A stretch of DNA of 13,011 bases from a virus: UHGV virus genome UHGV-1813710, one strand, 5' to 3'. Within the stretch, counting starts at the first letter, position 1; every line of letters begins with the position of its first letter. Positions 689-13,011 of the stretch are shown one piece after another. The notes beneath the pieces were generated by a model that saw nothing but the letters and a program-made list of their open reading frames with translations, searched no databases and was not told the origin of the DNA. Both the position numbers and the translations under genes were made by a program.

Positions 689-871
689 TCAGCCCCCTCG
701 CTTCGCTGGATGAGTGATTTGTTCCACAGACCAATGAGCAAAGCTGTGGTTGATAGGTACCCACTCACCCGCTAAATTAACTGCATAGCGTAACGGGGCT
801 GGCGGTCTAGCATTATCGACCGGTAAGCAACGTAATTGCGGAACCTTGCAAGTTGCTGTTAATATGTTCAT
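689..871 (-). CDS. Small hypothetical phage protein (60 aa)
   Basis: ATG at 871-869 overlaps the TGA of the upstream CII-like ORF (ATGA overlap), and its own stop abuts the start of the downstream gene. The ORF track gives a longer version starting at 925 that would overlap the upstream gene. Confidence 0.4.
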   Translation of the reverse strand: MNILTATCKVPQLRCLPVDNARPPAPLRYAVNLAGEWVPINHSFAHWSVEQITHPAKRGG

Positions 872-1395
872 GCGATTGATTCTCCACACAGACAATTTTT
901 CGCCAAGGCGCCCGGAGCTGCACACTCGCGGGCGTCAACTTTTTCAGGCTCGCAATAGACACGAGCCACAAGCGTAAGAAACTGCATCAAGATGATATGG
1001 ATCTGGTGCGCTACTTCATTTAGCCCATCGAACTCTCGCCGCGTAATGACGTTGTCTGCTTTGTACTCACGATACGCGTTCGACAATTCCCCCAGCTTTG
1101 CCACCAGCTCAGCAAACTTATCGCCGATATCTTCGTTATCAATTTGATCAAGTTCTGGAAGCAATAAGAAAACGCCCCCCGAGATCCGCGCAATAGTTGA
1201 TGCAAAGTCTTCTGTCTGGCTGAATGCTTGCATCTGCAGCGCGTCATTGACGCTCATGTATTGAGCCCCGGCACCGCCACGTTCATAAACAAGGTTTTCA
1301 AGCTTGCAGCGGCTGTAACCTAAAGCGGCTGACATTGCATCCCAGCCGCCGGGATATGCCCTGATCATTGACTGGTAACACTTGCGAATTTCCAC
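868..1395 (-). CDS. CII-like early regulatory protein (phage CII/CP76-type, tentative)
   Basis: 175-aa ORF directly downstream of the cro-like gene on the same strand. GTG start at 1395 with AAGGGG Shine-Dalgarno 6 nt upstream; first in-frame ATG is 27 nt inside. Position and sequence style recall phage 186 CII-type regulators; the family assignment is from memory only. Confidence 0.5.
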   Translation of the reverse strand: MEIRKCYQSMIRAYPGGWDAMSAALGYSRCKLENLVYERGGAGAQYMSVNDALQMQAFSQTEDFASTIARISGGVFLLLPELDQIDNEDIGDKFAELVAKLGELSNAYREYKADNVITRREFDGLNEVAHQIHIILMQFLTLVARVYCEPEKVDARECAAPGALAKNCLCGESIA

Positions 1396-1450: not shown

Positions 1451-1684
1451 TTACTTCGAGCCAATGCGCTTCTTGCTTATCTCCAGCAAGTATTTTGCGG
1501 TGTATTTGCCTTTTGAAGCTTTGGCTATTTTGTTTGCGTAATCGGTCTCGCCACAAAAGTCCGTTCGGGGCAAGGAACCTTTTGAGATCCACTTGTAAAT
1601 TGCTCTTGGTGTGCGCCCGCAACAACTTGCAACCAACAGCACGCCTATTTCTTTCAAGGCATCACCTAACGTCTTATTTTCCAT
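1451..1684 (-). CDS. Cro-like HTH DNA-binding protein (Cro/YdaS-type)
   Basis: 77-aa ORF divergent from the repressor gene. AGGTGA Shine-Dalgarno 5 nt upstream of the ATG at 1684. The segment GRTPRAIYKWISKGSLP looks like the recognition helix region of Cro/YdaS-like proteins. Confidence 0.7.
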   Translation of the reverse strand: MENKTLGDALKEIGVLLVASCCGRTPRAIYKWISKGSLPRTDFCGETDYANKIAKASKGKYTAKYLLEISKKRIGSK

Positions 1685-1689
1685 GCTCT

Positions 1690-1773
1690 CACCTATAAAA
1701 TGAACTTAAAGTACATTCTATGTCAGAACTGAAAGTACATGCAAATGATTCTACAATTGAACCCATGGTACAA
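1690..1773. promoter_or_regulatory. OR-like immunity switch: three 17-bp bipartite operator-like repeats with putative divergent promoters
   Basis: Repeats ATGAAC-TTAAA-GTACAT (1700-1716), CAGAAC-TGAAA-GTACAT (1724-1740) and TTGAAC-CCATG-GTACAA (1757-1773). Candidate leftward promoter on the minus strand: TTGCAT (plus 1744-1739), 18-bp spacer, TAGAAT (plus 1720-1715). Candidate rightward promoter: -10 TACAAT at 1752-1757, placing the transcript start near the ATG at 1765 (leaderless, as for lambda cI). Confidence 0.45.
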
Positions 1774-2700
1774 GACGAAAAAGTGCGGAAAGATTTTGCC
1801 CAGCGGCTAGCACTGGCCTGTAGAGAAGCGGGGCTTGATGATCATGGCCGTGGCACTGAAATAGCCAAGGCGCTAAAGGTTACGGCCAAGGCTGTCAGCA
1901 AATGGCTCAATGCTGAGGCGTTGCCTCGTCAGCCCAAGATGGAGGCGCTGGCAAGGTTCCTGAAGGTCGATATGATATGGTTGCAGCATGGTAAGCGTGA
2001 CTCAAGATCTGCTGATGAGCAGGACGGGATCATTAAGTACAAGGATTTCGCAGATAGGCTAAACTCTCTCATGGGCGATAAGGGGGTGGACGTGAATCAA
2101 TTAAAAGAAATCTGCGATGTCACATTTGAAGTAGCGCGAAGTTATACACTTGGTGTATCAAAACCACGGGATGAAGCATTAGAGAAAATAGCTAATTTTT
2201 TTCAAGTTTCAATGCCATTTCTCGACTATGGCGTAGTTGATGACTCGCAACCATCTTCCGATACTGAAAAATTACAGCAGTTAGCTGTTTACGCCTCGGC
2301 TGGACGTAGCGGATATATAAATTCAGAGTTCCCAGAGGTCATCCGATCGATTGAAATACCCAAAGAGAGGATCTATGAGCTTTTTGGGAGAAAAAGCCTT
2401 GATGGTATCAGCATCATGAACATCAACGGCGATAGTATGATCCCAACTCTCAACCCTAGAGATCTTCTTTTTATTGACACTAGAATTGATAGTTTTAATG
2501 GCGATGGCGTCTATGTATTTTGTTTTGAAGATGCAATGTTTGTTAAGCGATTACAAAGAGTTAAGGGTAGAAGGTTATCAGTAATTTCAGATAATAATGT
2601 TTACCCTCCATTTACAATTGAAGAAAATGAAATGTTTGAGCTGTACATATATGGAAAGTTGATAAAACAATTACCAATGAAGCTCATTGATTTCGCTTAG
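1765..2700 (+). CDS. CI-type prophage repressor with two tandem HTH (XRE-type) domains and a C-terminal S24 (LexA-like) autopeptidase domain
   Basis: C-terminal region contains GDSM (catalytic Ser) and FVKRL (catalytic Lys) plus an Ala-Gly candidate cleavage site (YASAGRSG). Two separate HTH-like segments precede it (…TEIAKALKVTAKAVSKWLN… and …LKEICDVTFEVARSYTLGVS…). Start ambiguous: ATG 1720 (track) or ATG 1765; 1765 is preferred because 1720 lies among the operator repeats and the putative leftward promoter. Confidence 0.85.
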   Translation: MVQDEKVRKDFAQRLALACREAGLDDHGRGTEIAKALKVTAKAVSKWLNAEALPRQPKMEALARFLKVDMIWLQHGKRDSRSADEQDGIIKYKDFADRLNSLMGDKGVDVNQLKEICDVTFEVARSYTLGVSKPRDEALEKIANFFQVSMPFLDYGVVDDSQPSSDTEKLQQLAVYASAGRSGYINSEFPEVIRSIEIPKERIYELFGRKSLDGISIMNINGDSMIPTLNPRDLLFIDTRIDSFNGDGVYVFCFEDAMFVKRLQRVKGRRLSVISDNNVYPPFTIEENEMFELYIYGKLIKQLPMKLIDFA

Positions 2701-2830: not shown

Positions 2831-2898
2831 TCCATCAACCGCAGTCACTAGCACTATCAGTGGTTGTGGATACTTAAGAGACTTAGGTGGGAGTTCAA

Positions 2899-3159
2899 AT
2901 GACTAGTTATTACACGTGCTCTTTTTGCGGGATACGCGAGCAGGATGCTAAAAGGATTGTTGCCAAGGGTGGCAGAGATGAGCCAGCAATCTGCTCTAAG
3001 TGCATTGTCTCATGTGTAAATGTCATTATTAACGCAGGAACAGTAATGGAAATAGAGAAAAAAGGCGCCAATAAGGGTGAATTAATCCTTGATATGGAAT
3101 TGGCACCTCGATCAGAAAAAATGTCATTTACTCAGACTGAGGTAGCTCAATCGGATTAA
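2899..3159 (+). CDS. Small protein (86 aa) with a ClpX-type C4 zinc-finger (ClpX N-terminal zinc-binding-domain-like) and no ATPase domain
   Basis: Sequence MTSYYTCSFCGIREQDAKRIVAKGGRDEPAICSKCIVSCVNVII has C-x2-C-x19-C-x2-C and parallels the ClpX N-domain (recalled E. coli motif YCSFCGK…RKLIAG…ICDECVDLCNDII). GGGAG Shine-Dalgarno 6 nt upstream of ATG 2899; the track's 2887 start is GTG. Confidence 0.65.
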   Translation: MTSYYTCSFCGIREQDAKRIVAKGGRDEPAICSKCIVSCVNVIINAGTVMEIEKKGANKGELILDMELAPRSEKMSFTQTEVAQSD

Positions 3160-3458: not shown

Positions 3459-3971
3459 TTAGAAGATCATTGGAGCGATATCTATTGGCTCATATGCCGA
3501 TTTGTTCATTAGAAAAAGGCTGGCGCAATGAAAGCATTTGCATTGTTCAAAGTAACAAGAGTTATTCGAATTATATCCAACCTCTCCTGTTGGCTGGAGT
3601 ATCGATACTATTTTTTGTGTGAAGCATTTTGGGCAAAGATGCACGGCTATTTGCATTCCGTTAACAGATTCATTCTTAGAATAAACAAACGTTCCAGAAT
3701 CAAGCTGGTTCAGAGCATAACCTTCAGTCTGGCTTTTAAAGTCTTCGAACTCTGCAATTTTTGCTTTGAGCGTTACGGCTTCTTCCTGATAAAAGCGTGC
3801 AAGCTCAATGAGCGACATGCATTCACGCTGCACAGACGTAAGCTTTAAAACCATATCGCTAACAGCAGAATTTATCTCTGCCTGTGTTTTTGCATTTGAA
3901 ATAACTTTCGCCAAAGCAGTCGTTTCTTTAATTGCCGACATTGCAGCTGTGATTTCAACAAACACTTTCAA
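3459..3971 (-). CDS. Hypothetical protein (170 aa): helical/coiled-coil N-terminal half, Cys-rich C-terminal half; AT-rich moron-like gene
   Basis: Protein-like ORF convergent with the flanking rightward genes; the opposite-strand ORFs (3528-3848, 3808-4008) look like antisense artefacts. C-terminal half has a CPKC…C…CKCFHC pattern suggesting metal binding. TTG start at 3971 with no clear Shine-Dalgarno; alternative ATG at 3941. Sequence is visibly more AT-rich than neighbouring phage genes. Confidence 0.5.
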   Translation of the reverse strand: MKVFVEITAAMSAIKETTALAKVISNAKTQAEINSAVSDMVLKLTSVQRECMSLIELARFYQEEAVTLKAKIAEFEDFKSQTEGYALNQLDSGTFVYSKNESVNGMQIAVHLCPKCFTQKIVSILQPTGEVGYNSNNSCYFEQCKCFHCASLFLMNKSAYEPIDIAPMIF

Positions 3972-4406: not shown

Positions 4407-4493
4407 ACCACACAGAGAGAAGTGCTTGTTGAGTGCTGCCCTGTGTGTGGAGAACGTATCGCGATGTGCATCGCACTTTCTGAGGGTCAAACA

Positions 4494-4868
4494 ATGAGTA
4501 AAGAAAATCGCATGACAGTAGTGCCCGAGTTCTTGGGCGAACTGGATGCAGGGATCTTTGAAAATAAGATTGCTGCAGCGTTAAACAGTACCGCTTTAGG
4601 CGTTCTAAACAACGGCGGTAAAGGTCAGGTTGTTGTTACGTTTGATATTGATCGACTGAGCAATTCGGTTGAAGAAAAACGCGTTGGTATTAAGCATAAG
4701 TTGAAGTTCGTTACACCTACCCCACGGGGCAAAGTGTCAGAAGAAGACACCACGGAAACGCCTATGTACGTAGGGAAAGGTGGCAAGTTAACAGTATTGC
4801 AAGAAGATCAAGGGCAACTGTTTTCAATCGATGGCGCCCCGGATGGAAAATTGCGCCAAACGCAATAA
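4494..4868 (+). CDS. Hypothetical phage early protein (124 aa)
   Basis: ATG at 4494 with GAGGG Shine-Dalgarno 7-11 nt upstream. The track's longer form starts at 4422, but that extension is encoded by a palindromic leader and is Cys-rich. Confidence 0.6.
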   Translation: MSKENRMTVVPEFLGELDAGIFENKIAAALNSTALGVLNNGGKGQVVVTFDIDRLSNSVEEKRVGIKHKLKFVTPTPRGKVSEEDTTETPMYVGKGGKLTVLQEDQGQLFSIDGAPDGKLRQTQ

Positions 4869-4925
4869 TCTTGGCAATTAAATAAACCTCACCATTTTAT
4901 TACTTAATTAAAGCAAGGATAAAAC

Positions 4926-5753
4926 ATGTCACAAGTAGACGGTTCAGCTATTCAACAAATTAAAGATCTTTCACTGGCTGCATTTTATTTAGACCCAATT
5001 AAATCAACTAACTGCCCTGCAGTTATTATTCCGTCTGATTATCAAGTTAAGAGCTTGGAAAGCTTAAATGATGGTCGTTTTCGTTTTCGCGGCAAATTAA
5101 GCACAACTAGCATTGCTGATTTTGTTCGTTATTCATCTGCATACTCTGAAGGTCAGCCGGGCGCCAGTTGTTTTATTGACGCTGACAATATGTGTGCAAC
5201 ATCCGTTTTCAACCTAGGCACGCTTGAGAGCGCAGGCCACGCTGATAACACTGCAGCAATCGCTTTGAAAAAAACAGCACCATTCTGTGCTCTGCTTGAT
5301 TTCAATGGCGAAAAGTCACGCCAAAAGCAGCTTGCAGAATGGCTAGAGGATTGGAGCGACTTCCTCACCGCCTTTGATGCAGACGGCAAGGTACTTCCAA
5401 TTAAACAAGCTGTTAGCGCCATTCGCCGTATTACCATTGAATCAGTGCAAAGTGCGGATCATGAAGATGCTGATTTCAGCGGTAAGCAGTCATTGATGCA
5501 AAGTGTAGAGGCTAAAAGCAAAGAGATCATGCCTGTGGCCTTTGAATTTAAGTGCGTACCTTATGAGGGCTTATCCGAGCGCCGTTTCAGTCTGCGTAAT
5601 AGTATTCTGACGGGGGACACGCCTTTATTCGTTCTGCGTATTGTTCAACTGGAAGCTGTAGAGGAAGAAATTGCAAACGAATTCCGTGATCTGCTCACAG
5701 AGCAATTCACAGGCAAATCAATTGAAACCTTTATTGGTAATTTTAAAGCCTAA
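4926..5753 (+). CDS. Hypothetical phage protein, DUF2303/YfdQ-like (recollection, unverified)
   Basis: 275-aa ORF with AAGGA Shine-Dalgarno 7 nt upstream of the ATG. Its size and the following HD-domain gene resemble the yfdQ-yfdR arrangement of the E. coli CPS-53 cryptic prophage. Confidence 0.65.
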
Positions 5754-5779
5754 TTATTAATAACATTTAATACAGCCTT

Positions 5780-5803
5780 AAGCACCGAGCATATTCGGTG
5801 CTT
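5780..5803 (+). other. Perfect 8-bp stem hairpin in the intergenic region between early genes
   Basis: AAGCACCG (5780-5787), 8-nt loop, CGGTGCTT (5796-5803). The downstream tract is only moderately T-rich, so it may be an attenuator or processing/stability element rather than a strong terminator. Confidence 0.3.
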
Positions 5804-5843
5804 AGTGAAGTGTTATCTGTTTAATGTGTGGAGAAATTAAAAA

Positions 5844-6377
5844 GTGAATAGCCCTTATATTATTACCTTCTCAGGTAAAGCATTTAATTTAATCGAGCCT
5901 CAGCGCGAGCAAATAGTGATCGAGGATATTGCTCATGCGCTAGCGAGAGAAAACCGCTTTAACGGTCACACTAAGGCCGCATACAGCGTTGCCCAGCACT
6001 GCTATCACGCATCATTTTGTGTACCGCCAGAGTTCGCACTTGAGGCGCTAATGCATGATGCTGCCGAGGCTTACATCAAAGATATTCCATCACCAATAAA
6101 GCTTCTTTTGCCAGATTATCGCGCATTAGAAAAACGCGTTGAAATGGCTATCTGCGAACGATTTGGCCTACCACTAGCGCTGAGTAGCTGCGTCAAATAT
6201 GCAGACCTCATCATGCTGGCATCAGAAAAACGCGACCTTGGCATCGTCGATGAAAAACCGTGGCCACTTTTGGAAGGTATTCCAGTTGCTGATTTCACTA
6301 TCGAACCAATGACTGCAGAAGTTGCCGAGCATCTCTTTATGGGGCGCTACGTAGAATTGACGGAGCTATGCAAATGA
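5844..6377 (+). CDS. HD-domain phosphohydrolase (YfdR/YfbR-like nucleotidase family)
   Basis: HD-domain signature H…H…HD: IAHALARENRFNGH…YSVAQHCYH…EALMHDAAEAYIKDIPSPIK, plus VKYADLIMLASEKRDLG. GTG start at 5844 with GGAG 11 nt upstream. Confidence 0.75.
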   Translation: MNSPYIITFSGKAFNLIEPQREQIVIEDIAHALARENRFNGHTKAAYSVAQHCYHASFCVPPEFALEALMHDAAEAYIKDIPSPIKLLLPDYRALEKRVEMAICERFGLPLALSSCVKYADLIMLASEKRDLGIVDEKPWPLLEGIPVADFTIEPMTAEVAEHLFMGRYVELTELCK

Positions 6378-6754
6378 CGCACATCAGTGAAATACCAGCA
6401 GGAACATTAGTTAAGCAAGCGCATGCAGGCGTGAAGCTTATTGCTGAACAGTATCCAGAGGCAGCGGCAATATTACGTGAAGCCATTACACGCTTTGATG
6501 TGTTGCGTGAGGTCCACCAGCTGACCAACCACAAAGTTAAAAAGCCCGTTACTGATGTGAAGCCTAATGATGTTGTTTGTGTTTTTGGTAAGTGCTACCG
6601 GCTGCGATACATCAACTATTACGGGAACCATTCAGTATTGCGCTTTCAGCCAGCTAGAGAGCCACTATCTCCATATACAGAAAATGATGTGATCAGCATC
6701 GATTTAGCAAATGACATTCTGATTGAGGTTGTGGGGGGGCTGAACAATGTCTGA
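6374..6754 (+). CDS. Hypothetical phage protein (about 126 aa)
   Basis: ATG at 6374 overlaps the TGA of the HD-domain gene (ATGA), with GGAG 8 nt upstream; the track uses the in-frame ATG at 6368. Confidence 0.55.
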   Translation: MTHISEIPAGTLVKQAHAGVKLIAEQYPEAAAILREAITRFDVLREVHQLTNHKVKKPVTDVKPNDVVCVFGKCYRLRYINYYGNHSVLRFQPAREPLSPYTENDVISIDLANDILIEVVGGLNNV

Positions 6755-7499
6755 ATTATCAACTGAGCGTTTAGAAAAATTCGTCAACGATATTAAAACT
6801 GATGGGATGTGCGACATAACTGATTATCAAGTTGCGTTGGCGTTACGTCAGTTACTGGCATACGAGCAAGCAGTACCGGTATTACCTAAACAGCCTGAGA
6901 CTCAGTTCGATGAAATCGCGCTTGATACTGCAAGAGAGATTATGCGTGATGTAAACCAGCGCCATGAATTGATTGGCGGTGAGTGTCAGTTGCTTGCGCG
7001 CACTCAGTGTCGAATTAATGACGTACTGTGTAACGTCGCAGCACCAGCACAACCTGTAATACCAGAACAAGCTAAGCCTGTGGCATATACAGACAATAGA
7101 AACTTAAAAAGTCTACAGAAAGGATGTAATACGGCATTGCTCTGGCTTAAGCATAACGCCGAAGTTGGTGATATTCCTCTATATACCGAAGTGCCGACAC
7201 AACCTGTAAGCGAGCCTTACAAGCTACCAGTCGGATATTTTTCTTATGGCTCTGAGTGTGGTTTTGATTGGCACAATACAGAGAAAGAAGCGATTGAAGC
7301 TGCCGAGGCTGTAATTGACAACTATCGCGGTGATGCGTGCGACGGCTGGTCTGAGGAAACAGACAGTGTCTGCTGGGGTGTCATTTTGCAACAGGCAACA
7401 AAGGTCGATGAGCGCCCACGTACTGATGATGATAAATGCGATCCGGCTATTGATACGGTCTGTGATTACGCGCTACTACCGGCGCAGGAGAGCGAATAA
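6747..7499 (+). CDS. Hypothetical phage protein (250 aa), Cys-containing C-terminal region
   Basis: Start overlaps the upstream gene by 8 nt, with a GGGGG Shine-Dalgarno. Ends in …AQESE, whose codons form the Shine-Dalgarno for the next gene. Confidence 0.6.
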   Translation: MSELSTERLEKFVNDIKTDGMCDITDYQVALALRQLLAYEQAVPVLPKQPETQFDEIALDTAREIMRDVNQRHELIGGECQLLARTQCRINDVLCNVAAPAQPVIPEQAKPVAYTDNRNLKSLQKGCNTALLWLKHNAEVGDIPLYTEVPTQPVSEPYKLPVGYFSYGSECGFDWHNTEKEAIEAAEAVIDNYRGDACDGWSEETDSVCWGVILQQATKVDERPRTDDDKCDPAIDTVCDYALLPAQESE

Positions 7500-8263
7500 T
7501 GCGCCCTCACTTTCACGGAACCCCGATTTGGGGGAATGCTGGCGATGTTTTGCGTGTTGCTGTTAGCGGAGCTGGTGCATTCGTTTCTTACGTTAGACCA
7601 GACCAGATTGAGCGCTGTTTTAAATATGCGGATAGTGTAGCTATCGATAACGGCGCGTTTTCAGCATGGAAAAGCGGCAAGAAATTGGATTGGAATAAAT
7701 TCTATGAATTCCTGTACAGGCATTATCACCGCTCAAAGCTTGCATTTTTTTGTATTCCAGACGTTGTGGAAGGTGGTGAAAGCGATAACGACGCAATGAT
7801 TAAAGCCGTTCCGCACATATTCAAAGAAAAAGCAGCTCCGGTTTGGCATTTACACGAATCTATCGAGCGCTTAATTCGTTTGTGCGAAGAGTGGCCGCGC
7901 GTGTGTTTTGGCTCGTCTGGTCAGTACGCGCGAACATTAACAAAGCTATGGCATGAGCGCATGAAAGAAGCTTTCACGGAGATTTATATCAAGCGCCAAC
8001 TGACAACGAAAATACACGGACTACGCATGCTTGATGGTCGCATTTTGGGTAACTACCCGCTACACAGCGCAGATAGCACAAACCTAGCATGCAACGTTCC
8101 AAAATTTAACATGAAGTATCCAGAGCTAACCCGAGCTGTATTAGATAAGGGGTATGGTCAAGACATGGTTCAACTACACCGTTGCGCGATTCTAAAAAAC
8201 TCAATTGAGTCAGTAACACCGCCGAGCATCGCGGCGTGGGTAGCTGCACAGGAGAGCGAATAA
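7499..8263 (+). CDS. Hypothetical phage protein (254 aa); weak, unverified resemblance to tRNA-guanine transglycosylase (TGT)/DpdA-type proteins
   Basis: TAATG overlap with the upstream gene. Segments HGTPIWG, VAIDNGAFSAW and GLRMLDG loosely parallel the TGT segments PVGTYG, LTDSGGFQV and GIDMFDCV (recollection, not a computed alignment). Confidence 0.6.
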   Translation: MRPHFHGTPIWGNAGDVLRVAVSGAGAFVSYVRPDQIERCFKYADSVAIDNGAFSAWKSGKKLDWNKFYEFLYRHYHRSKLAFFCIPDVVEGGESDNDAMIKAVPHIFKEKAAPVWHLHESIERLIRLCEEWPRVCFGSSGQYARTLTKLWHERMKEAFTEIYIKRQLTTKIHGLRMLDGRILGNYPLHSADSTNLACNVPKFNMKYPELTRAVLDKGYGQDMVQLHRCAILKNSIESVTPPSIAAWVAAQESE

Positions 8264-8264
8264 T

Positions 8265-8549
8265 ATGGCTCGGACGATTAACGACTCTATAGATGCAACT
8301 ATAGCCTCTCTCGTTAGTAACATTCACAACTTGCGCAAAGAAGTAGAAGAATCAGCCGTTCTACGACTGGCAAGCTTCCGCCAGCGCGAACTAATGATCG
8401 AAGGCGTTCGACAAATGTCCGCGCATTACAAAAAGGAGGCGAAAAGCTTTATGGACTCACAAGATCAAGTTGAGGCCATTGATTGCAGCTATATCGCTAA
8501 AAAGTGTGATGCATTTATTGCGCACATTATGAAGCAGGAGAGCAAATAA
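8265..8549 (+). CDS. Hypothetical phage protein (94 aa), predicted helical
   Basis: ATG 2 nt after the upstream stop, preceded by the same CAGGAGAGCGAATAAT junction motif. Confidence 0.55.
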   Translation: MARTINDSIDATIASLVSNIHNLRKEVEESAVLRLASFRQRELMIEGVRQMSAHYKKEAKSFMDSQDQVEAIDCSYIAKKCDAFIAHIMKQESK

Positions 8550-8911
8550 TGCCGACTAACAAGATAACAGAGCATTATCTTAGTTCATTGATCGTTAGAT
8601 TGCGCCGCCGCGCGTTTGAACTGACAGGGACTCAATCAGCGAATCTTATGAATGAAGCAGCTAAAGCGATCTATGAATTTCGTGAGTATAGAAGAGCTAA
8701 TCCAGCGTTGCCCGCCGGCTGGAAGATAGCCCCGCGAGATCCGGATGAGGAAATGATTATAAGGGGTTTTGAGTCTGAACCCGATGAATCATTCAGCACG
8801 CCGGAGGATTGGGAGCGGTACGAAAAAATGAGTGGATGCGAGCAAGCTGCGCATAGAGTCAAATTAAGTTGGACTGCAATGTTTGATGCAATACCCCCCA
8901 TTAAGGATTAA
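8549..8911 (+). CDS. Hypothetical phage protein (120 aa)
   Basis: TAATG overlap with the upstream gene; third copy of the junction motif (CAGGAGAGCAAATAATG). Confidence 0.55.
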   Translation: MPTNKITEHYLSSLIVRLRRRAFELTGTQSANLMNEAAKAIYEFREYRRANPALPAGWKIAPRDPDEEMIIRGFESEPDESFSTPEDWERYEKMSGCEQAAHRVKLSWTAMFDAIPPIKD

Positions 8912-9505
8912 ATGATGATCGACTCAATTGTTATTGATACCGAAACTATGGATGTGCGCCCATCTGCATTATTGCTTTCAATCGGCGCAATTGCATTCGA
9001 TGTGACAGATCTCGAAGCGCTTCGCTACAACATTTCTTATGCAGTTAAAGCGGAGCACCACAGCAGTGAGTCATATGTTTTCTATCATCTGCTAGATGCT
9101 AATTCACAGATCATGGTAGGCCGCACCGTGTCTAGAAGCACTCAGATGTGGTGGAGGGGGCAAGGTGATTCAGCAAAAGCAGCGTTGGATGGCGATAAGC
9201 AAGATCTAAAAGAAGTACTTGAAGCATTGACGCACTGGATAGCTCAATATCCAGATGCACAGATTTATTTTCGTGGTACTGACTTTGACGGTTCTATTCT
9301 CGAGAGTGCGTATCGAGCTTACGACTTGAAATGTCCGTGGAAATATAATGGCAAGCGCGATGTACGTACATTCATTGATGCATTGAGCGGGAGCGATAAG
9401 GGTTATATTGCAGATCATGAACCTTGCTTTGCAATGATTAAGCATAATTCACTTCATGATGCGATGAACGATGCAGAGCAAATGGCTATAGCTCACTCTC
9501 TTTAA
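8912..9505 (+). CDS. DEDDh-type (DnaQ-like) 3'-5' exonuclease
   Basis: Exo I-like IVIDTETMD, Exo II-like FRGTDFDGSILESAY and Exo III-like HNSLHDAMNDAEQ are present in the expected order and spacing. ATG immediately follows the upstream TAA. Confidence 0.75.
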   Translation: MMIDSIVIDTETMDVRPSALLLSIGAIAFDVTDLEALRYNISYAVKAEHHSSESYVFYHLLDANSQIMVGRTVSRSTQMWWRGQGDSAKAALDGDKQDLKEVLEALTHWIAQYPDAQIYFRGTDFDGSILESAYRAYDLKCPWKYNGKRDVRTFIDALSGSDKGYIADHEPCFAMIKHNSLHDAMNDAEQMAIAHSL

Positions 9506-9513
9506 TAATTTAC

Positions 9514-9545
9514 GGCCCGTGTGCAGCGGGCCATATTTAATTTAT
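9514..9545 (+). terminator. Hairpin with AT-rich tail between the exonuclease gene and xis (weak terminator or attenuator)
   Basis: GGCCCG (9514-9519), 7-nt loop, CGGGCC (9527-9532), followed by ATATTTAATTTAT. Confidence 0.35.
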
Positions 9546-9563
9546 CTGTGTGGAGTTTTAATC

Positions 9564-9782
9564 ATGGCGAAAGAAGCTAAATTGATGCGCGCGAGCGCGT
9601 GGGGCAAGCGTGAGTTCGAGGTGGGTTCTATTCCTGATAATAGAACTATTAGGCGCTGGATAGAAAATGGCCGTTTGCGTGGCCGGATTGTTGATGGAAC
9701 CATTTTGGTTTATTCATCTGAACGCTGGGGTATTGAGTCTGTTGTATCCCACCACGTACATAATTTAATTAGTGAATCATGA
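9564..9782 (+). CDS. xis: Excisionase (lambda Xis-like)
   Basis: Lies immediately upstream of int with an ATGA overlap. Segment RTIRRWIENGRLRGRIVDGTILVYSSE parallels lambda Xis ETVRRWVRECRIFPPPVKDGREYLFHES. GGAG 9 nt upstream of ATG 9564; the track's 9519 start lacks a Shine-Dalgarno. Confidence 0.75.
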   Translation: MAKEAKLMRASAWGKREFEVGSIPDNRTIRRWIENGRLRGRIVDGTILVYSSERWGIESVVSHHVHNLISES

Positions 9783-11037: not shown

Positions 11038-11094
11038 GTCGACAACCTAGAGAAACCAGTGCTGGCGCGGGTTTCAGCGTGTTGAATACGCTAA

Positions 11095-11140
11095 CATGGG
11101 GTGTCGGGGGTCGGAGGTTCAAATCCTCTCGTGCCGACCA
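11095..11140 (+). other. Partial tRNA: 3' about 45 nt of a tRNA-Pro-like gene (anticodon loop to CCA), i.e. the att core repeat at the prophage boundary
   Basis: T-arm GGAGG-TTCAAAT-CCTCT (11113-11129), acceptor 3' strand CGTGCCG, discriminator A and CCA (11138-11140). No complementary 5' acceptor strand (CGGCACG) upstream, so the tRNA is not intact. GGG sits at the inferred anticodon position and the string matches my recollection of enterobacterial tRNA-Pro. Confidence 0.65.
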
Positions 11141-11182: not shown

Positions 11183-11453
11183 ATGTCTTCAATTTGTCAC
11201 TACGGCCAATATTACGCGCAGCAAGAAGTAAAAAAGCCCCCAAAGTGATTGGGTGGCGGGCTGAGGAAGTGCTCGAGATGGCTGAAGCAGGACTGATATA
11301 CGACGAATTTAGGGTAGTCTAAAGCTATTTGAATCCTCATGACCACGCTGAGGTTGAGGTATACTGCTTCAGAGCGGGGTAAATAAATTACGTCGCTATA
11401 GACAGACATAGGGATTGTCGCAGTTCTGGTCAGAAGACATTAGGATTGAGAAT

Positions 11454-11780
11454 ATGGAAATAAATCACTGCGAATTATATGTCAAAGACCTTGTCGGCCT
11501 GTCCCTGATTTTGATTGTGTGGGCTGTACTCGTCTGGAACTTCATTTCCTGCTGTTTCACAGGGCGTGCTAGCTTTATGTTTTCCCGTTATAGCTTCAGA
11601 CGCACCAAGGACGAATTGGGAATCATTGGGGATCGAACGGGAAGTAAGATACTCTATTTCTTAGCTATGGCGCTCAAGTTACTTTTAATTGTATTTTTTT
11701 CATACAGTGTATTTGTGCCATTGTTCAGCCCTGGAGTATTTGAGGAAGTAATGGGCCACATTTTTACCTGCCATAAATGA
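11454..11780 (+). CDS. Possible small membrane protein (two hydrophobic segments); doubtful
   Basis: ATG at 11454 with AGGA 9 nt upstream; the track form starts at TTG 11415. Two hydrophobic stretches (LVGLSLILIVWAVLVWNFI and ILYFLAMALKLLLIVFFSYSVFVPLF). Could equally be a degraded region. Confidence 0.25.
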   Translation: MEINHCELYVKDLVGLSLILIVWAVLVWNFISCCFTGRASFMFSRYSFRRTKDELGIIGDRTGSKILYFLAMALKLLLIVFFSYSVFVPLFSPGVFEEVMGHIFTCHK

Positions 11781-11989
11781 GTTCTGATACTCTACCCTCC
11801 CCCCACGGTGAACTTTTAATGTTAATAAGTTTGTTCATTTCGTTACGTTGCTTCTGCAGATGGAGCCCCTCTATAACGAATAAAAAAACAATCATTAGGG
11901 TCTTTTAATACCTAATTAACCAAAAGTAACATAGCATTTTCATAATAGATAAAATTAGATATAATCAAATATTATCTATTATTAATAGC

Positions 11990-12997
11990 ATGGCTAATTT
12001 TTATTACATGGATACAGACAAAAATTTCAATCATGAAAATGATTCACTATTCAAAAAAAACACTATTAAAACAAGCAATAACAATCTAAAAGTACTAAAT
12101 ATTGCATTCTGTTTTGATGATAATTTTGTGATGCCAACAGGTGTAGCCATTGCATCTGTCATTGAAAACAATAAAGACTCGCACCTCCACTTTCATTTAT
12201 TCTTCGAATCCATTTCTGAAAAAAACAAATCTAGAATACTTGAGATACAAGGTGATAACGTTTCAATAACAACATATGAACTTCAGGAAGAACTATCCGT
12301 CAATCCTAATACACTCATTCTGGGAATCCCAAAGTCCACGTGCTTAAGATTTATGGTTCCTTTTGTTCTACGGCATGAGGTTGATTCTGTTTTATATTTG
12401 GATGGCGATATGATTTGCTTAGATTCATTACACGCCTTACATGACCTAAACCTTAAAGGACATATTGCCGCTGTAGTTGCTGACTCTAAAGAGATGCAAC
12501 AGAAAGCCAGCACACTAGGATACGGTATTGATACCGATAAATATTTCAATGCAGGATTTTTATTTATCAATGTATCTGAGTGGAATTTTAAAAATGTCAC
12601 CGCCGTGGCATTTAACATGATCAATAGCGGTACAATTTATAAATATGCCGATCAGGATGTATTAAATATACTCTTAAACGAAAACATTAAATTAATTGAC
12701 AAGAAATATAATAAAACTATAACGCTAAGCCCTATCGATAGGGTAGATGATAATGCATCTCGTGGCACAACCATTTTGCATTATGTTACAAAAAATAAAC
12801 CGTGGTTTATGATATTTGAGTCTCAGATTTTCTTTTATTACCTGAATCAATCTCCATGGAAAGACACGCAATTAAAACTGACACCTAATGCTAGCCTGCT
12901 TAGAATAAAGGCAAAAAAACTCCTTTCTGATAAGAAATTTGTCGATTGGATAAAATATTTCTCCCTATATATTAAATATAAATTATTTAGCAAATAA
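11990..12997 (+). CDS. Glycosyltransferase family 8 (LPS/LOS glycosyltransferase-like, RfaJ/LgtC type)
   Basis: GT8 hallmarks: NIAFCFDDNFVMPTGVAIASV (nucleotide-sugar binding region), YLDGDMIC (DxD motif), NAGFLFINVSEW, YADQDVLN and HY…KPW. Very AT-rich gene preceded by an AT-rich promoter-like region. Confidence 0.8.
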   Translation: MANFYYMDTDKNFNHENDSLFKKNTIKTSNNNLKVLNIAFCFDDNFVMPTGVAIASVIENNKDSHLHFHLFFESISEKNKSRILEIQGDNVSITTYELQEELSVNPNTLILGIPKSTCLRFMVPFVLRHEVDSVLYLDGDMICLDSLHALHDLNLKGHIAAVVADSKEMQQKASTLGYGIDTDKYFNAGFLFINVSEWNFKNVTAVAFNMINSGTIYKYADQDVLNILLNENIKLIDKKYNKTITLSPIDRVDDNASRGTTILHYVTKNKPWFMIFESQIFFYYLNQSPWKDTQLKLTPNASLLRIKAKKLLSDKKFVDWIKYFSLYIKYKLFSK

Positions 12998-13011
12998 AAC
13001 CATCAGCATTA

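Follow-up and report, generated by a model that had tools for sequence, protein, structure and literature searches.

Genes of the yfd cassette

The stretch of DNA analyzed here (13,011 nucleotides, nt, of the virus genome UHGV-1813710; below, the window) carries on its plus strand homologs of the Escherichia coli K-12 genes yfdP (4494-4868), yfdQ (4926-5753) and yfdR (5844-6377), followed by a small gene (6374-6754) that overlaps the stop codon of yfdR. Judged by sequence, it is almost certainly an ordinary copy of the yfdP-yfdQ-yfdR cassette, which is carried among the early genes by many lambda-like phages of enteric bacteria. The initial annotation had described 4926-6754 as a DUF2303-like open reading frame (ORF), an HD-domain ORF and a small coupled gene, mirroring the yfdQ-yfdR-yfdS arrangement of the E. 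coli cryptic prophage CPS-53. All three ORFs are present at these positions, and homology bears out the likeness for the first two, while for the third it is one of position (E 24 against YfdS). The module boundaries were drawn wrongly, in that the upstream YfdP homolog was missed and the conserved core is yfdP-yfdQ. At the identities given below, the window proteins YfdP, YfdQ and YfdR rank as orthologue-level relatives of those of K-12.

The yfdP gene encodes 124 amino acids (aa) from an ATG at 4494, with a GAGGG ribosome-binding site 8 nt 5' of it. Its product is 58% identical to K-12 YfdP (E 1e-47; YfdP homolog length, 123 aa) and matches phrog_204 at 3e-37, while Pfam PF27127 ('YfdP') is precomputed for the identical protein on a metagenome contig. 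Position agrees with family match, as the gene lies directly 5' of the DUF2303 gene, with 57 nt between the end of yfdP and yfdQ. The AlphaFold2 model of YfdP, of moderate confidence (predicted local distance difference test, pLDDT, 70.5), consists of a single long helix, a sheet of three strands and a C-terminal tail that is disordered yet conserved. No significant match to this model was found among PDB folds, only NTF2-like folds and RAD52 at E 0.04-0.3, and an HU/IHF-like topology, our first impression, was left unsupported by the fold search.

The 275-aa product of yfdQ matches Pfam PF10065 (DUF2303) at 2.5e-70 over residues 8-273 of 275, with 237.2 bits against a cut-off of 26.6, and phrog_210 at 1e-98. 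Alignment with K-12 YfdQ gave 59% identity over 276 columns (E 4e-117). The family comprises 1359 representative clusters at 50% identity, with DUF2303 present in 182 phage records, and is uniformly acidic (median isoelectric point, pI, 5.1). When the AlphaFold2 model of window YfdQ (pLDDT 89.6) was compared by Foldseek with BFVD, only DUF2303 proteins were retrieved (E 1e-16 to 6e-8), i.e. members of the same fold, and a PDB library without entry 9o7m yielded nothing better than E 0.03. That entry, the only solved 'YfdQ protein', consists of 36 chains and is matched by window YfdQ by sequence at 2e-43; its protein is not from E. coli but is about 97-99% identical to proteins of CP2-like Xanthomonas/Xylella phages (MET23-P3, Usme). 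It shows that the YfdQ family forms a large assembly, and nothing further. A literature search for 9o7m found no paper, and no YfdP partner of the solved YfdQ was found in the PDB. The example chain of the entry is 'C', which leaves chains A and B to be something else, possibly nucleic acid.

The yfdR gene starts with GTG behind a GGAG ribosome-binding site and encodes a YfdR-type HD phosphohydrolase of 177 aa. This protein is 52% identical to K-12 YfdR over 174 of its 177 residues (E 1e-60), 98.9% identical to an 'HD phosphohydrolase' of Hafnia phage yong2, and matches phrog_318 ('deoxyribonucleoside 5' monophosphate phosphatase') at 5e-79. Conservation of the HD motif had been named as a check on the initial annotation, and all its residues are in place (H52, H71-D72, E75, D80 and D121); among 33 YfdR-type sequences H52, D72 and D121 were 100% and H71 97% conserved. 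With this motif intact, and with the significant similarity to K-12 YfdQ and YfdR, the assignment of these two genes stands. E. coli YfbR (PDB 2paq) belongs to the same HD fold family and has the same motif, H...HD..E....D...D; its corresponding residues align with H71, D72, E75 and D121 of the window protein, the match being restricted to the surroundings of the motif (E 0.09). Alignment along the whole window protein was instead obtained with Agrobacterium tumefaciens Atu1052 (PDB 2gz4, E 2e-19), itself without an assigned function.

Against the Pfam family PF12917 ('YfbR-like') the window protein scored 25.4 bits, short of the cut-off of 25.9. As K-12 YfdR also scores below it (24.3 bits), the low score is a trait of the whole YfdR group and not a defect of this copy. 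The NCBIfam 5'-deoxynucleotidase equivalog NF003009 gave 18.4 bits against a required 122. By these scores the window protein is an HD relative of YfbR and no YfbR equivalog. Its catalytic residues make it likely that it is an active phosphohydrolase. RefSeq calls K-12 YfdR a 5'-deoxynucleotidase; for the window protein we infer that activity only, and the nucleotide affinities of K-12 YfdR are low (PMC4776307).

Order and orientation of yfdP, yfdQ and yfdR are the same in the yfdP-yfdQ-yfdR-yfdS-yfdT cluster of CPS-53 (KpLE1) of E. coli K-12. The two clusters also have in common a hairpin after yfdQ, a gene overlapping the yfdR stop, and a location in a prophage integrated at a tRNA gene (tRNA-Ser(UGA) in the window, argW for CPS-53), with the immunity side on one flank and the xis/int end on the other. 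Beyond yfdR the window differs, as it lacks YfdS (DUF551), YfdT and TorI and instead has a 126-aa mosaic gene, ORF250, a DpdA/queuine-tRNA-ribosyltransferase (TGT)-like gene, two small ORFs and a DEDDh exonuclease gene. A megablast search of the window against complete E. coli genomes gave no match.

At the DNA level the window is most similar to Hafnia phage yong2 (MZ516527), at 89-93% identity over 4472-6522, a stretch that takes in yfdP, yfdQ and the HD gene and runs ~150 nt into the gene after it. Its layout resembles that of the window (cI, yfdP, yfdQ, the HD gene, further genes, a 3'-5' exonuclease and integrase), but the genes beyond window position 6522 are not alike, and the 185-aa cI of yong2 lies directly before yfdP, whereas in the window the repressor has 326 aa and two helix-turn-helix (HTH) domains, and ~1.7 kb of extra genes come in between. 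The same three-gene cluster is found in the early-left operon of the LLS, ST64B and phiNP lambdoids, which have 'no Rec module' (PMC12315714). YfdQ of ST64B and phiNP is 64-65% identical to that of the window, which differs from this group in its Hafnia-type host, and whose likeness to it is known from the left arm alone. The proteins closest to those of the window are from Hafnia.

In the window the cluster is on the leftward early strand, with the immunity region to one side of it and xis/int to the other, in the same layout as in yong2 and at least 20 genome loci. The plus-strand ORFs are tightly packed from ~4.4 kb to 11 kb, in the order yfdP, yfdQ, the HD gene, ORF126, ORF250, the DpdA/TGT-like gene, two small ORFs, the DEDDh exonuclease gene, xis and int. 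The region is a leftward early operon; the prophage that carries it belongs to the 'no Rec module' lambdoids.

Linkage across loci, hairpin and third gene

By scoring the neighbors of yfdQ in 45 YfdQ-encoding loci, the window included, drawn from contigs of one genome per species, we found yfdP directly 5' of yfdQ in 45 out of 45 (those with upstream DNA present). The yfdR gene followed yfdQ in 37 of the 45 loci by clustering, or in about 39 (~85%) when one fused and one contig-truncated copy are counted, and was absent from six. A homolog of the DEDDh exonuclease occurred downstream of yfdQ in 21 of the loci, while ORF126 and ORF250 were found only in the window and yong2 among the loci scored. 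A hidden Markov model (HMM) of YfdP also identified the gene directly 5' of DUF2303 in more distant phages, namely the Stx2a phage VT2phi_272 (E 1e-43), the Vibrio phages VvAW1 (6e-33) and D71 (7e-25), the Xanthomonas phage CP2 (9e-23) and the Psychrobacter phage Psymv2 (7e-21), none of which has an adjacent yfdR. YfdR-type HD genes, for their part, occur in 337 phage records, as against the 182 with DUF2303; the records with the HD gene include jumbo phages and phages of Gram-positive hosts, and mostly lack DUF2303. Thus yfdP-yfdQ is an invariant two-gene unit, kept out to phages of Vibrio, Xanthomonas and Psychrobacter, and from the linkage counts, the distant phages and the numbers of records we consider it to be the core, with yfdR a frequent, though dispensable, and separately mobile add-on in Enterobacterales. 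Genes for SSB or exonucleases neighbor yfdPQ in VvAW1 and in the Endozoicomonas-relative locus L045. In VT2phi_272 (L056, 5991-9822) the order is gam-recT-exo-ssb-yfdP-yfdQ, without yfdR; medically relevant Stx2a phages hence carry the yfdP-yfdQ pair, and do so next to a Rec module.

Between yfdQ and yfdR lies a covarying intercistronic hairpin on the plus strand (5780-5803), about 25 nt past the yfdQ stop, with a 9-bp stem (5780-5788 pairing with 5795-5803) and the loop GCATAT. The segment 5751-5846 folds at -25.3 kcal/mol (z -3.75), and in 36 out of 38 distinct loci the same place is occupied by a hairpin whose stem has 7 bp or more. In an alignment of 22 sequences all 198 of the 198 stem cells pair (100%), with compensatory changes in six of the nine pairs, while none of 500 shuffles reached the observed values and register-shifted controls paired at 39-59%. 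Canonical terminators with a U-tract occur at the same position in VvAW1 and L045. An Rfam search of the hairpin and its region gave no family, only sub-threshold terminator-like matches near the cI terminator. The hairpin would serve as a terminator-like or mRNA-stabilizing element that closes the yfdPQ unit.

The third gene (6374-6754, plus strand) is a mosaic gene of 126 aa from the ATG at 6374 (ORF126/ORF128, the ORF being listed from 6368). Its coupling to the HD gene, claimed in the initial annotation, is real: start and stop overlap in ATGA at 6374, the start is the one annotated in yong2, and the overlap mirrors the 10-nt overlap between yfdR and yfdS in K-12. Its identification with YfdS was rejected, given the BLASTP E value of 24 and an HMM that hits the window ORF and not YfdS. 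Moreover, when the whole window was searched by tblastn, nothing below E 0.1 was obtained for YfdS or YfdT and nothing for TorI, and a scan for DUF551 (YfdS) gave no match among the ORFs scanned within 4422-9782 or outside it.

Over 32 loci, the genes that overlap the stop of yfdR make up 18 sequence clusters. Most share an N-terminal segment of ~45 residues (...KELVAAAHAAA..LPPA.A.LMREVATRLDV..AL.E; located within 6374-6540 in the window), corresponding to phrog_12248, while their C-termini are mosaic. The HMM of this module, built without the sequences of the window, yong2 and K-12, matched the window protein at E 6e-6, as compared with 3e-3 for the best control and 1.2 for K-12 YfdS. In loci without yfdR it matched the first gene after yfdQ (E 4e-27 to 7e-10). 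Over its N-terminal 56 aa the window protein is 88% identical to a 290-aa protein of yong2, after which the two diverge, and its own C-terminus matches phrog_8705. The similarity between the window and yong2 breaks at 6522, inside this gene, marking a recombination junction. No match to the window protein was found in Pfam, PDB or PADLOC. By its N-terminal module the window gene is of the common type, with K-12 YfdS as the outlier. A conserved N-terminus joined to a variable C-terminus has been described for Ea22 (PMC10834534); the third gene, having no Pfam match, was not accepted as Ea22-like, and the resemblance is an architectural analogy only.

The cassette as such is already known, i.e. 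from the RefSeq 'YfdQ family', the Pfam families for YfdP and YfdQ, K-12 genetics and a survey of lambdoid early-left operons. The window copy by itself adds little, and what the comparison yielded along the way does not make it special. For the family as a whole, three pointers emerge: the unit to study is yfdP plus yfdQ and not yfdQRS(T); the covarying hairpin sets this unit off from yfdR; and what follows yfdR is mostly a mosaic gene with a common N-terminal module, to which K-12 YfdS forms the exception. As the YfdP-YfdQ pair is widespread, occurs also in Stx2a-converting phages and includes a protein of solved structure, it makes a reasonable experimental target.

Proposed function of the cassette

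The explanation that we judge to be likely is a yfdP-yfdQ-yfdR cassette that belongs to the pL operon of a lambdoid prophage from Hafnia, of the type of ST64B, SfV, LLS and CPS-53, and that works as follows. Upon repressor cleavage or infection the early operon would be transcribed from pL, and the hairpin would let the products of yfdP and yfdQ accumulate above those of the distal genes. YfdR would act as a divalent-metal HD phosphohydrolase, hydrolyzing deoxynucleoside 5'-monophosphates (5'-dNMPs) at low affinity, and, like its K-12 homolog, might bind domain I of DnaA, compete with DiaA and DnaB and so damp initiation at the host oriC during phage replication. YfdP and YfdQ, probably assembled into a large oligomer, may jointly serve some step in the replication, recombination or repair of DNA. 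That the two form a physical complex we hold to be somewhat the better bet. The DNA-metabolism neighbors counted in favor of such a role are the exonuclease in 21 out of 45 loci, the SSB and exonucleases of VvAW1 and L045, and gam-recT-exo-ssb of VT2phi_272.

The replication part of this scheme comes from K-12, where YfdR binds DnaA and multicopy yfdQRS or yfdQRT suppresses over-initiation and inhibits initiation at oriC, while YfdQ, YfdS and YfdT have no defined role (PMC4776307). What the initial annotation said of YfdR-type proteins is accurate, both as to an effect on replication initiation (PMC4776307) and as to nucleotidase activity (RefSeq naming of K-12 YfdR). The host-takeover or nucleotide-pool role that it proposed for the cassette is plausible by analogy, being transferred from a protein of 52% identity. 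Binding to DnaA domain I, dependent on Phe46, has been demonstrated for K-12 YfdR only (PMC4776307), and inhibition directed at DnaA seems doubtful as the natural role of YfdR in the present prophage.

Several observations weigh against the scheme. All function in it would be transferred from proteins of 52-59% identity. In K-12, deletion of yfdQRST gives no replication phenotype, the effect of YfdR overexpression may, as its authors concede, be an artefact, and YfdR binds nucleotides with affinities well below those of YfbR (PMC4776307). The K-12 phenotype furthermore required yfdS or yfdT besides yfdQR, and the window has no homolog of either. The wide host range of YfdR-type HD genes without DUF2303 points to a generic nucleotide role rather than to one specific to DnaA, and a role of YfdP and YfdQ in DNA metabolism is drawn from gene neighborhood alone, as neither protein gives an informative fold match. 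As for the hairpin, the enterobacterial copies have a short U-run only and no long U-tract, and in VT2phi_272 the hairpin is not obvious.

A variant of the scheme shifts the weight from YfdR to its upstream neighbors. Here yfdP-yfdQ would be the real functional unit, a two-protein early machine in the form of a megadalton oligomer with its own terminator-like hairpin, serving an undescribed step in host takeover or in the replication or recombination of phage DNA; the HD enzyme and the mosaic proteins would be its exchangeable accessories. We put this forward tentatively, as a possibility somewhat short of even.

Next, YfdR might be a nucleotide-pool enzyme and nothing else, i.e. a phage 5'-deoxynucleotidase like Dmp of phage T5 or host YfbR, acting on dNMPs or non-canonical nucleotides in lytic growth, with DnaA binding as a curiosity of overexpression in E. 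coli and YfdP/YfdQ as unrelated neighbors. The intact HD catalytic set fits this, as do the dNMP phosphatase annotation of phrog_318, the RefSeq name of K-12 YfdR and the spread of the HD family, mostly without DUF2303, over 337 phage records whose hosts differ widely. The same can be said of the conserved hairpin that splits yfdR from yfdPQ, and of the absence of yfdR from ~15% of the loci and from all distant phages examined. T5 Dmp is in addition a functional analog as a phage dNMP phosphatase, of the same proposed chemistry and likewise encoded by an early gene, but it belongs to a lytic phage and to a context of host-DNA degradation, and as a homolog of the window HD protein it was rejected (pairwise E 19). 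Besides this lack of sequence similarity, the affinities of YfdR, far below YfbR's, and a function called 'elusive' (PMC4776307) speak against a dedicated deoxynucleotidase, as does the score far under the NCBIfam equivalog cut-off (18 versus 122 bits), and the degradation of dNMPs by a temperate phage lacks a current explanation. On balance we think it unlikely that nucleotide-pool chemistry is the whole account.

A recombination function would make YfdP-YfdQ an unrecognized single-strand-annealing or DNA-end-handling module, replacing Red/Erf/RecT in 'no Rec module' lambdoids. In the window, Pfam and phrog scans detected no recognizable Red, RecT, Erf or Gam gene, so that its early-left operon is without a known recombinase. 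In lambdoid early-left operons a yfbR-like/yfdQ/yfdP cluster occurs fairly often, and it is typical of the LLS-type phages that have 'no Rec module', with YfdQ and YfdP being of no known function (PMC12315714). Other points in its favor are the SSB and exonuclease neighbors in distant phages, the 36 chains of the solved YfdQ homolog, suggestive of a large oligomer like those of annealing proteins, and the weak sensitivity of K-12 yfdQ mutants to methyl methanesulfonate (PMC4776307). However, the pair coexists with a complete gam-recT-exo-ssb set in VT2phi_272, as we confirmed, and with a Rec module in ArgO145, and such occurrence beside a complete Rec module is why a hidden recombinase role was judged unlikely in PMC12315714. 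Foldseek likewise found neither Rad52, Redβ or RecT nor any other PDB fold to be significantly similar, the best RAD52 match for YfdP being at E 0.28, and the uniform acidity of the YfdQ family (median pI 5.1) argues in the same direction, although not decisively. We accordingly regard this role of the pair as quite improbable.

HD phosphohydrolases are chemically capable of cutting nucleotide messengers, and one could therefore imagine an anti-defense cassette, in which the HD enzyme destroys nucleotide immune signals or counters defenses based on dNTP (deoxynucleoside triphosphate) depletion and YfdQ is an oligomeric sponge or decoy. Despite the accessory early-left position beside other counter-defense-like genes (the DpdA/TGT-like gene at 7499-8263), the mosaic and quickly varying downstream genes and the acidic large oligomer formed by YfdQ, this is the least probable of the readings, since PDB and BFVD searches gave no known anti-defense protein, YfdP, YfdQ, YfdR and ORF128 had no match in PADLOC (a weak point, as that library holds defense systems and not anti-defense genes), and the strict conservation of yfdP-yfdQ over phages of Gammaproteobacteria is unlike the patchy spread typical of anti-defense genes. 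By the same PADLOC result, membership of the four proteins in a defense system was rejected.

Prophage context of the window

Upstream of the cassette, the immunity region consists of a cII-like gene (868-1395, minus strand), a cro-like gene (1451-1684, minus strand) and an unusually long cI-type repressor gene (1720-2700, plus strand), whose 326-aa product has two HTH domains and an S24 peptidase domain. The true start of the repressor may be an internal Met, since the listed ATG at 1720 is only 35 nt from the start of the cro-like gene. Operator-like repeats of the GAAC..AAGTACA type lie between these two genes (1691-1772, putative OR) and, on the plus strand, just past the repressor terminator (2775-2828, putative OL/pL), where the leftward early operon would start. 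Repeat families D1, D2, D5 and D8 and the inverted repeat I5 are common to both regions. The terminator-like hairpin after the repressor gene (I4) is located at 2711-2746.

The first ORF past the putative OL/pL (2887-3159, plus strand) encodes a small protein (90 aa), in which Pfam recognizes a ClpX-type C4 zinc finger at 3.7e-07, above the cut-off; the protein also matches phrog_5259 and could be a protease-adaptor mimic. Further on, a 170-aa gene belonging to phrog_1244, with Cys-rich C-terminal motifs, sits inverted in the leftward operon (3459-3971, minus strand), so that operon transcription would have to traverse it antisense.

Downstream of the third gene and ORF250, the DpdA/queuine-tRNA-ribosyltransferase-like gene (7499-8263, plus strand) matches phrog_887 at 5e-82, while Pfam, NCBIfam and PDB sequence searches gave no match. 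Homologs occur in 107 phage records, e.g. those of the lambdoid HK106 and the Salmonella phages SEN1 and SW9, and among the 45 YfdQ loci the gene was otherwise seen in L015 only. The gene hints that a temperate phage modifies DNA in the 7-deazaguanine manner. The exonuclease gene (8912-9505, plus strand) encodes an Rv2179c-like DEDDh 3'-5' exonuclease (Pfam PF16473 at 7e-32; phrog_255 'exonuclease' at 6.5e-55), and as it recurs downstream of yfdQ (21 out of 45 loci, and also yong2), it may be functionally linked to the cassette.

Scans of the ORFs in the window revealed no structural or lysis genes, and the contigs recovered by exact protein match are no longer than 10.3 kb, so that the prophage, called intact and apparently inducible in the initial annotation, is putative in both respects. 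The tRNA-Ser(UGA) gene (11057-11140, plus strand), ~100 nt past the integrase gene, is the likely attachment site. Past it (11400-13011) the G+C content falls to 31-37%, and a family-8 glycosyltransferase gene is found at 11990-12997 (Pfam 6.6e-47); the DNA beyond the tRNA gene is probably a host lipopolysaccharide or other island and not phage.

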